Of a stretch of DNA of 64,000 bases, positions 25,268 through 26,501 are shown piece by piece (within the stretch, counting starts at the first letter, position 1; each line of letters begins with the position of its first letter). The position numbers and the translations under genes were made by a program. Origin of the DNA: a virus (lineage: Duplodnaviria > Heunggongvirae > Uroviricota > Caudoviricetes); IMG/VR virus record IMGVR_UViG_3300031555_002904. One strand, given 5' to 3'. Under the pieces are notes generated by a model, which worked only from the letters and a program-made list of their open reading frames with translations, was not told where the DNA came from and did not search any database.

Positions 25268-26501
25268 ATGCTATGACACTTGTAGTCTTTTAGAACAAGC
25301 TGGGCATTTATTCACATCTGACGAGTACGCTTTAGTAATTACTTCAATTACTTTAGAAGAATTGGAGCATATTAAAACCGCTTCCAACAAAGACGCCGAT
25401 GTGAAGTTTGCGGCCCGCAAAGTTCTAACTGACCTCGACGAACACTATGGCTCATTTGAAATTGTTCTTTACAATGACCTATATGGCGAGAAAATGCTTA
25501 AAGATGGTATCAGCCTAACTAACGACGCCAAAATCATCGCTTGCGCTCGTCATTTTGCAGCCACACATCCAGAAGATGAAGTTATCTTTGTAACTAATGA
25601 CTTAATCTGCCGTCATATCGCAAGTATGTATTTCACAACTGAAAAGGTTGTTGAGGAGGAATATAATTATGATGGTTATAAAGAAGTATTCTTGGATGAA
25701 GATGGAATGACTGAATTTTATTCCAATCCAGAAGCCAATCTATATGACCTACATATTAATGAATACTTGTTGGTATATAATACTGATGGCGAATGCGTGG
25801 ACCGACTATGCTGGACAGGTAATGGATATAGACATTTGAGTTATAACAGTTTTAATTCTCGCTGGTTCGGAGACGTTAAACCCATGAAGGGAGACGTTTA
25901 CCAGTCACTTGCGGCCGATAGCTTGATGAATAACAAGATTACCTTAGTTAAAGGACCTGCGGGTTCCGGTAAAACATTCTTGAGTCTGGCCTTCTTGATG
26001 CACAAACTGGAGAGAAATAAGATTGATAGAATCATTGTGTTCTGTAATACTGTTGCCACTAAGAATTCTGCTAAATTAGGATATTACCCTGGCACACGAG
26101 ATGAAAAGCTTTTAGACTCTCAAATCGGTAATCTATTAATTAGTAAATTTGGTGGAAGACTTGCTGTTGAACAAATGATTCAGCAAGAAAAATTAGTTTT
26201 ATTACCTTTGTCTGACATTCGTGGATACGATACATCTGGTATGTGCGCTGGTATTTATATTTCAGAAGCACAAAATATGGATGTGGAGTTAATGAAATTG
26301 ACTTTACAGCGTATTGGCGAAGATAGTATCTGTATTATTGATGGTGACTGTAAGACATAGGTTGACGATATTCACTTCTCTGGAAGTAATAACGGTATGC
26401 GTAGAGCCTCTCAAGTATATCGAGGCGAAGATGTGTATGGCGAGATTACTTTGAAAAATATTCATCGTTCTCGTATTGCACAAATTGCTGAAAAAATGTA
26501 A
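25251..26501 (+). CDS. phoH: PIN-domain plus PhoH-like ATPase (YlaK-like) with in-frame TAG at 26358
   Basis: Walker A VKGPAGSGKT. The TAG falls in the PhoH motif IIDGDCKT-[TAG]-VDD, which corresponds to the conserved GD-x-TQ-xD with Q. The frame continues to TAA 26499-26501. Confidence 0.8.

Follow-up and report, generated by a model that had tools for sequence, protein, structure and literature searches.

TAG very probably encodes glutamine in a phage distantly related to SPbeta, with tandem tRNA(CUA) genes upstream

We analysed the TAG codons that interrupt genes in a 64,000-nucleotide stretch of Caudoviricetes DNA (IMG/VR record IMGVR_UViG_3300031555_002904; the whole stretch is called the window), which is part of a large gut-type phage genome of ~130-160 kb. 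Comparison with related sequences makes it very probable that TAG stands for glutamine in this phage, that is, that the phage uses genetic code 15. As judged from the sequence, TAA and TGA alone end its genes and TAG is a rare glutamine codon. An earlier note, made from the letters of the window, had favoured glutamine over tryptophan, tyrosine or any other residue and had suggested searching elsewhere in the genome for a suppressor tRNA. Column counts and a likelihood ranking both place glutamine first, and two tandem tRNA(CUA) genes with the acceptor identity set of tRNA-Gln were found upstream of the window.

Residues at the TAG columns

To read the residue at each interrupted position, the TAG-bearing proteins, with X at each TAG, were compared by tblastn with the DNA of ~140 related loci. 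The subject codon was read directly, so that the column counts carry no translation-table bias. In 9 of the 21 testable window columns glutamine is the commonest sense residue, compared with its background frequency of 3.5% (binomial 1.6e-8). A BLOSUM62-based likelihood with one vote per column ranked Q first across these 21 columns, with E lower by 5.9, K by 8.2, R by 9.4 and S by 14.5 ln units; raw counts also put Q first, with E lower by 155 ln units, although counts across relatives share phylogeny and are not independent. The reciprocal comparison gave a similar picture. The relatives' 841 in-frame TAGs align to window Q in 295 cases (35%), to K in 91, to E in 82 and to TAG in 72, while the same alignments hold only 60 TAA and 6 TGA; when each window column is taken once, 90 of 333 are Q. 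Finally, we defined a conserved clade column as one in which a single residue accounts for 80% or more of the sense residues, and called it TAG-bearing if at least one clade member has TAG there. The 63 such columns comprise Q 40, K 5, E 5, Y 2, W 0 and S 0, compared with a 2.5% share of Q among all conserved clade columns. On these tests the earlier note's preference for glutamine over tryptophan, tyrosine or another residue holds.

The clearest single site lies in a PIN-PhoH (YlaK-like) gene on the plus strand (25257-26501; Pfam PhoH), where TAG occupies 26358-26360 (codon 368). Within 26325-26369 the codons read att att gat ggt gac tgt aag aca TAG gtt gac gat. The earlier note had placed ACA TAG GTT at 26355-26363 within IIDGDCKT-TAG-VDD, and further sites at 39596, 39626 and 57083; all of these positions are exact. 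It had also matched the PhoH site to a conserved glutamine, and that match is borne out. The DNA of the relatives gives Q 31 times and T once, the best database homologues have Q in 119 of 120 (the JGI proteins among them being assumed to be standard-code calls, as fragmented JGI calls suggest), and the solved PhoH structure PDB 3b85 reads GDI-TQVDL, with its Q aligned to the window TAG.

Elsewhere glutamine is conserved over a narrower range. The RecJ-like DHH exonuclease gene (48034-49770, plus strand; Pfam DHH) carries TAGs at 48172 (codon 47) and 48247 (codon 72). Codon 72 lies directly before IDSDCDG, the motif I aspartates, as the earlier note had described, and its column holds Q 36, TAG 17, I 3 and N 1; this glutamine is conserved only within the clade, and in the RecJ proteins of E. 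coli and Thermus the position is presumably V or H. The codon 47 column is variable, with L (18) the commonest among many residues. In the RuvC-like resolvase gene (62198-62683, plus strand; Pfam RuvC) the three TAGs, at 62219, 62390 and 62570, fall at codon 8 (Q 26, TAG 13, L 9; Q plus TAG 39 of 48), codon 65 (Q 21, TAG 17, H 8; 38 of 48) and codon 125 (Q 30, TAG 7, I 9; 37 of 48).

The most TAG-rich gene of the window (38825-39817, plus strand), with 9 TAGs in 330 codons (38966, 38972, 39077, 39206, 39242, 39275, 39389, 39596 and 39626), encodes a membrane anchor, a coiled coil and a GIY-YIG nuclease domain. Codon 189 shows Q 4 and TAG 3. The sites at 39596 and 39626 (codons 258 and 268) had been equated with the canonical YIGQ and R..QH glutamines. 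The first of these holds up, since codon 258 is mostly Q (Q 12, TAG 3, K 3, S 2, Y 1); the second does not, since codon 268 is mixed (E 8, Q 4, TAG 3, Y 2). I-TevI has S and R, respectively, at these two columns. The N-terminal membrane anchor and long coiled coil of this protein are atypical for a homing endonuclease.

The guanylate-kinase-like gene (Gmk; 56960-57529, plus strand) carries TAGs at 57017, 57083, 57137 and 57392 (codons 20, 42, 60 and 145), all four in variable columns. At codon 42, TTRPMR-[TAG]-GE had been likened to TTRQPRPGE, a parallel that fails: the relatives have E 39, D 10 and Q 4, solved guanylate kinases have E or P, and the Q of TTRQPRPGE belongs to a different column. 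The other Gmk columns hold R 21, K 15 and Q 8 (codon 20), E 25 and Q 11 (codon 60), and S 19, K 14 and G 9 (codon 145). In the dihydrofolate reductase (DHFR) gene (41000-41497, plus strand; TAG 41195, codon 66; Pfam DHFR_1) the relatives are mixed and solved enzymes have A, N, Q or S, a column that appears compatible with glutamine without deciding for it. Among the tested sites, then, the alignments identify PhoH as the only family-wide conserved glutamine, with RecJ codon 72, RuvC and GIY-YIG codon 258 as glutamines at the level of the clade.

The remaining interrupted genes also lie on the plus strand. A metallophosphoesterase gene (21635-22348; TAG 22220, codon 196) has TAG 6, D 2, F 1 and E 1 in relatives, whose alignments continue past the TAG; read-through yields a Cys-rich tail ending 15 nt before the start of the next gene. 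Two hypothetical small genes show Q 10, N 7 and R 2 (24541-24969; TAG 24841, codon 101) and K 9 (25013-25267; TAG 25163, codon 51). The YorH-like gene (43969-44628; Pfam Phage_SPbeta_YorH on the called gene) has its TAG at 44002 (codon 12), within a CPYC zinc-ribbon-like motif, in a variable column (K 3, Q 2, G 2), and a hypothetical gene (50761-51219; TAG 50893) has TAG 1, N 1 and E 1 among few relatives. A small hypothetical gene (61160-61414) contains TAG 61268, which the ENA call reads through (84 amino acids), and a further hypothetical gene (63300-63899; TAGs 63339 and 63456) is called by ENA at 199 amino acids versus a 55-amino-acid JGI standard-code fragment.

Two features of these data weigh against glutamine: many window columns (Gmk, RecJ codon 47, DHFR) are variable and singly fit E or K equally well, and, as noted above, the relatives are not independent witnesses. 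If the tRNA that reads TAG inserted Glu, Lys, Tyr, Trp, Ser or pyrrolysine instead, the columns dominated by E (Gmk codon 42), R and K (Gmk codon 20), S (Gmk codon 145) or K (codon 51 of 25013-25267) would be accounted for, and the non-glutamine residues E, K, Y, S, L and W have codons one step from TAG. The likelihood ranking and the conserved TAG-bearing columns both speak for glutamine over these residues, and together with the tRNA features described below they make a different residue very unlikely.

Reading frames across TAG

Eighty-six open reading frames (ORFs) delimited by TAA and TGA only tile ~95% of the window, ending in TAA (60) or TGA (26). All window genes lie on the plus strand, and the ORF set comprises plus-strand-only calls with curated start codons. 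After start curation 28 TAGs stand in frame in 13 genes; in-frame TAA and TGA are both zero by construction, as these two codons delimit the ORFs. The automatic calls contain 33 in-frame TAGs compared with 228 and 212 in the two off-frames, a roughly 7-fold depletion. Coding density is 0.906 under code 11, 0.946 under code 15 and 0.939 with TAA as a sense codon, which fuses same-strand genes, and it separates the codes poorly in this window. Pfam matches run across the TAGs: PhoH 215-409, GIY-YIG 242-322, DHFR_1 1-163, DHH 68-212, Guanylate_kin 3-176 and RuvC 4-76.

That the TAGs are true stops, left in pseudogenes, split genes or assembly errors and never read through, is hardly credible. The JGI standard-code pipeline does call the genes as fragments, and the in-frame depletion of TAG points the same way. 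Yet TAG alone interrupts the genes, never TAA or TGA, and the breaks would fall in catalytic cores such as the GD..Q.D motif of PhoH and would leave the Gmk-like gene in five pieces. Moreover, the identical sequence was assembled independently from many samples, the same columns hold TAG in some and CAA or CAG in others of ~70 related contigs, and cognate suppressor tRNAs exist.

Exact-protein look-ups found public loci identical to parts of the window: L083 and L084 are 100% identical to window 52751-64000, and L087 is 100% identical to window 1-11165. L083 and L084 share identical DNA (the window part plus 9 kb) and have conflicting public gene calls. The JGI calls split the Gmk-like, RuvC-like and tail-type genes, the ENA-derived calls continue through TAG, and protein databases hold both versions; the Q in the read-through versions is assumed, not observed.

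Suppressor tRNA genes

ARAGORN and Rfam detected no tRNA gene in the window, and ARAGORN detected none in the first 78 related loci, so the tRNA array does not lie near the polymerase gene. In distant relatives an array with CUA tRNAs lies upstream of a tRNA(GCA). An EcoRI-type methylase used as an upstream query gave three clade loci with tRNA arrays, none of them holding a CUA tRNA; being a mobile gene, it otherwise retrieved mostly unrelated phages. Searching for exact copies of the fully conserved tRNA(GCA) gave none in IMG/VR and, in the JGI metagenomes, a single contig of 1.9 kb. The cluster of an 81-amino-acid protein encoded beside tRNA(GCA) led to L203, the remainder of the contig of L087 (ena:ERZ27248306:k141_635947). 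Positions 14661-16527 of L203 are identical to window 1-1867, and the contig overlaps the window by 11,165 identical bases.

The L203 array runs Tyr, Thr, Ser, CUA, CUA, Leu, Gly, Lys, Lys, Met, GCA. Its two suppressor genes, SupA (L203 2960-3034, 75 nt) and SupB (L203 3035-3131, 97 nt), stand in tandem at a distance of ~11.6 kb upstream of the window start, score 47 and 54 bits against the Rfam tRNA model (threshold 29) and have CUA at the canonical anticodon position. In sister contigs with identical suppressors the array continues through Pro, Pro, Gln(UUG) and Gln(CUG).

The SupB acceptor stem, with U1-A72, G2-C71, G3-C70, G4-C69, G5-C68 and G73, is identical there to the two tRNA-Gln of the phage, and that of SupA differs only in a U1/C72 mismatch. 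Among the CCA-encoding members of 85 distinct clade tRNAs, U1 and G73 are combined only in tRNA-Gln and in seven distinct CUA tRNAs. Both suppressors also carry U35 and A37. The bacterial glutamine identity set comprises G73, U1-A72, G2-C71, G3-C70, G10, U34/U35/G36, A37 and U38; a weakened 1:72 pair converts other amber suppressors into glutamine inserters, and the amidotransferase route reads U1-A72 as well (PMC9976931). We also tried to assign the isotype from whole-tRNA identity, which gave 0.65-0.73 to other tRNAs and did not discriminate; the acceptor-stem features did.

Neither an aminoacyl-tRNA synthetase gene nor one for a release factor was seen in the window and flanks, so charging would fall to host enzymes. 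We suggest that the glutaminyl-tRNA synthetase (GlnRS) of a standard-code host, or a non-discriminating glutamyl-tRNA synthetase (GluRS) together with GatCAB, charges the phage CUA tRNAs with glutamine on account of U1 with its weak or mismatched 1:72 pair, G2-C71, G3-C70, G73, U35 and A37. Suppressor tRNAs that accumulate would then outcompete release factor 1 at UAG.

Some properties of these tRNAs weigh against glutamine charging. The genes lie outside the window, A36 replaces the G36 determinant in both (as CUA requires), and SupB has U10, with G10 present in SupA only. The long variable arm of SupB could in principle attract seryl-tRNA synthetase (SerRS), which uses both that feature and G73, and ARAGORN labels the CUA tRNAs 'Pyl'. 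Against serine or any other residue, the suppressor acceptor stems match the phage tRNA-Gln and no other isotype. Against pyrrolysine, the general Rfam tRNA model fits the CUA tRNAs over their whole length, D-arm and T-loop being standard, and the annotation of the window and flanks shows no pyl genes. The tRNA-Pyl has a compact D-loop and a 3-nt variable loop, and the phage CUA tRNAs do not resemble it.

The neighbourhood of the array has its own peculiarities. The tRNA(GCA), at L087 77-162 and 8.4 kb upstream of the window start, is 86 nt long with U73 and a long variable arm, an architecture unusual for tRNA-Cys. The same sequence recurs in L194-L199 and L201-L206, 100% conserved though the neighbouring protein is only 73% identical, and a similar long-arm tRNA(CCA) adjoins tRNA-Ser in L140. 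Between the tRNA array and a DUF2828 gene, L087 484-2894 holds an EcoRI-type methylase and a GmrSD/HNH pair that the close relatives L194-L199 lack; several assemblies are interrupted at this site, and these genes are probably a mobile insertion.

A hairpin in the variable arm of long suppressors

The extra 24 nt of SupB form a variable-region hairpin, CACGG-CUCUGAC-CCGUG, whose 7-nt loop CUCUGAC equals the anticodon loop of the phage tRNA-Gln(CUG). A pattern scan found two more such tRNAs (L213 1968-2065 and L212 3287-3382), of which the L213 tRNA shows compensatory changes in every stem, the extra stem included. We then scanned IMG/VR with CTCTAAA-N28-45-GGTTCGAATCC, a pattern without a variable-arm condition, which returned at least 118 stretches (L214-L331). 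Among the matches listed, Y-T-G-A occurs in the arm of 32 of 34 distinct long-arm CUA tRNAs, compared with 2 of 57 Ser, 0 of 34 Leu and 3 of 27 Tyr tRNAs (Fisher p = 3e-25). Among the same listed matches, 21 of 29 CUA tRNAs have YUG in the middle of a 7-nt loop with a closing stem of at least 3 bp, U occupies loop position '33' in 19 of 29 and A occupies '37' in 28 of 29, and most long-arm CUA tRNAs combine G73 with a U1 or A1 that faces a weak or mismatched 72. The arm stems covary and include at least 10 different sequences. The loop consensus is N-U-(C/U)UG-A-N, as in CUCUGAC and CUCUGAA, the latter being carried in the arm of the long suppressor of phage phAss-1 (L332 12445-12532).

Tentatively, the arm might be a functional mimic of the glutamine anticodon loop that restores the recognition by GlnRS, GluRS or GatCAB that is lost with CUA; on these sequence patterns we think this possible but doubtful, and the idea is geometrically unobvious for a monomeric GlnRS. 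The feature may be new: a full-text literature search found no description of it, which is not proof that it is undescribed, the words 'variable' and 'anticodon' are absent from the phAss-1 paper (PMC10607447), which leaves the arm unmentioned, and BLAST of SupB against GenBank phages gave T-arm matches only.

Long-arm tRNA(UAU) genes of 92-95 nt also occur, in L230, L234, L243, L268, L297, L315 and L323, and have GAU in the arm loop, for example GCACC-UGAUA-GGUGC; the major tRNA-Ile has GAU as its anticodon. A second anticodon-reading synthetase may be addressed here by the same principle, in which case the principle may be general.

Distribution of TAG among genes

Of ~650 glutamine codons in the window, 28 (~4%) are TAG, 270 CAA and 353 CAG. 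Their distribution is uneven: the module at 1-21600 has no TAG in ~6,500 codons compared with 28 in 13,597 codons downstream (Fisher p = 2e-5). Its G+C content is 0.40-0.46 versus 0.34-0.41 elsewhere, and CAG outnumbers CAA in it by 144 to 51. Across the clade we measured the TAG load of each family as TAG/(TAG + Gln codons). It is highest in RuvC (0.39), followed by GIY-YIG (0.27), the ORF at 62652 (0.21), RecJ (0.13) and Gmk (0.09), and falls to 0.003 in DNA polymerase III alpha (Pol III alpha), 0.002 in GyrB and 0 in GyrA, SPFH, ligase and YorF. Downstream of the window, two minus-strand tail-type genes, one of 1175 amino acids with 5 TAGs and a Laminin_G_3 gene of 808 amino acids with 3, have TAG at 0.37-0.43% of codons, compared with 0.14% in the window; JGI standard-code calls cut them into 6 and 3 pieces.

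These patterns suggest a regulatory role. Early or high-output genes (Pol III alpha, gyrase, ligase, SPFH and the 1-21.6 kb module) would stay TAG-free, accessory genes, nuclease genes and the two downstream tail-type genes would tolerate or accumulate TAG, and the codon would delay or throttle the expression of the genes that carry it, as proposed for other recoded phages. A subset of genes compatible with the standard code, set against recoded late and homing-nuclease genes, is a published pattern (10.1101/2021.08.26.457843). The window fits it only moderately, because its lysin-like genes (26577-28910 and 49810-50697) carry no TAG, so that a late-gene model fits loosely. This weighs against a role in timing, as does the fact that the one line of evidence for such a role is which genes avoid TAG.

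Alternatively, TAG might encode glutamine and have no regulatory role, arising by neutral CAG-to-TAG drift wherever inefficient suppression is tolerated. The rarity of TAG, its concentration in small accessory and nuclease genes, its absence from the lysin-like genes and its variation among close relatives, from 0 to 39 per ~5,500 aligned codons, are all in keeping with drift. What speaks against it is that the same families avoid TAG (Pol III alpha, GyrA, SPFH, ligase) or accumulate it (RuvC, GIY-YIG) throughout the clade, that the two downstream minus-strand genes are enriched, and that Borges et al. saw the same bias, with homing endonuclease preferentially recoded (10.1101/2021.08.26.457843). 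On balance we consider purely neutral drift possible but somewhat unlikely.

The clade itself is not uniform. One relative, L072 (IMGVR_UViG_3300021387_003619; 65% Pol III identity), has no in-frame TAG, and its RuvC gene contains four in-frame TGAs, which align to W, Y, Y and W of the window. From these alignments, one clade seems to hold no-TAG, TAG-recoded and TGA-recoded members.

Gene content and relatives of the phage

The large genes of the window encode a YorL-type Pol III alpha, NrdD, GyrA, GyrB, an NAD-dependent ligase, a multi-domain lysin, an SPFH protein, NAMPT, an RNA ligase and a major-vault-protein-like protein. Further genes are annotated on public contigs of identical sequence: YorF, YorH, DnaB, PIF1, thymidylate synthase, a Thg1-like protein, a sigma factor, RNase T, NAD synthase and NADAR. 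The module at 1-21600, all on the plus strand, contains genes for a Thg1-like tRNA 5'-end repair enzyme (2408-3214), the sigma factor (3695-4597), RNase T (4910-5818), RNA ligase (6427-7845), NAMPT (14879-16354), NAD synthase (16863-17669) and NADAR (17682-18197), and resembles a tRNA-repair and NAD-salvage set placed downstream of the tRNA array. At 8588-11104 a protein of 838 amino acids matches the shoulder and repeat domains of the eukaryotic major vault protein (PF11978 2e-23, PF17795); it is kept in the relatives L197, L199 and L201 and is unusual in a phage.

An SPbeta-type replication module is present, with YorL-type Pol III alpha, YorF, YorH, DnaB and RecJ together. The Pol III alpha is 38% identical to those of Bacillus SPbeta, phi3T, Enterococcus phages and the gut phage phAss-1, and at only 38% identity the sequence places this phage as a distant relative of SPbeta, outside that genus. 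Megablast of window 25-45 kb against GenBank phages gave no match, and no near-identical GenBank phage was found. At least 78 related IMG/VR contigs of 30-200 kb have polymerase identities of 45-98%. Relatives binned into metagenome-assembled genomes are labelled Acutalibacteraceae, Clostridium, Lachnospiraceae and Clostridia, and once Mollicutes. The host is probably a member of the Clostridia, for which the bin labels are a weak indication. Acutalibacteraceae, Clostridium and Lachnospiraceae use the standard code.

Discussion

If TAG is glutamine here, the window and ~80 relatives need translation with table 15. Standard-code pipelines fragment PhoH, RecJ, Gmk, RuvC, DHFR and the tail genes, as the JGI calls show. 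The recoded phages would gain an SPbeta-like lineage, probably of Clostridia, in which the TAG-free gene set is stable across the clade and members seem to differ in code; the mixture of codes together with this stable set makes the lineage a good natural series on the spread of a code change and on expression timing. Should the arm mimic prove true, it would help to explain how an amber suppressor is charged by an anticodon-reading host synthetase, and it would be directly useful for the engineering of suppressor tRNAs.

Recoding of TAG to glutamine is already known in phages of standard-code hosts, from bioinformatic surveys (10.1101/2021.08.26.457843) and metaproteomics (PMC9523058), and this phage adds another case; what may be new is the arm feature, not the recoding. 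Charging by host enzymes was likewise inferred by Borges et al. (10.1101/2021.08.26.457843) and Babkin et al. (PMC10607447). The code 15 gut phages include crAss-like, Lak, Garnet, Amethyst and Topaz phages (10.1101/2021.08.26.457843). They share with this phage in-frame TAGs at glutamine columns, a phage-encoded tRNA(CUA), variable TAG use in replication genes, some TAG-free genes and close relatives with other codes. They differ in that the lineage described here has an SPbeta-type replication module and sparse TAG, and in that the recoded genes of the window are mostly DNA-metabolism or accessory genes rather than structural or lysis genes.

SPbeta, phi3T and VRE9 resemble this phage in their YorL Pol III alpha, YorF and YorH families, DnaB and genomes of ~130 kb, although their identity to it is 38%. 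The SPbeta-like phages of Bacillus and Enterococcus use the standard code. Another parallel is phAss-1 (proposed Phassvirus group; PMC10607447, OQ749652), a gut phage of ~136 kb with a presumed Clostridia host, listed by NCBI in the 'Caudoviricetes code 15 clade'. Its genes include a YorL-type Pol III alpha, NrdD and NAMPT; it has many tRNAs, 41 ORFs with recoded TAG and, beside tRNA-Leu, a pair of adjacent tRNA-Sup(CUA), one of them long (88 nt) with the variable-arm loop CUCUGAA, compared with CUCUGAC in SupB. Its Pol III alpha, however, is only 38% identical and its gene order is different. Finally, the E. coli suppressor supE (glnV) likewise has a tRNA-Gln-type body with a CUA anticodon and is glutaminylated despite the loss of G36, its weak 1:72 pair and G73 favouring GlnRS (PMC9976931). 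Unlike the suppressors of this phage, supE is a chromosomal point mutant whose suppression is partial, and not part of a virus-encoded system on which whole genes depend.

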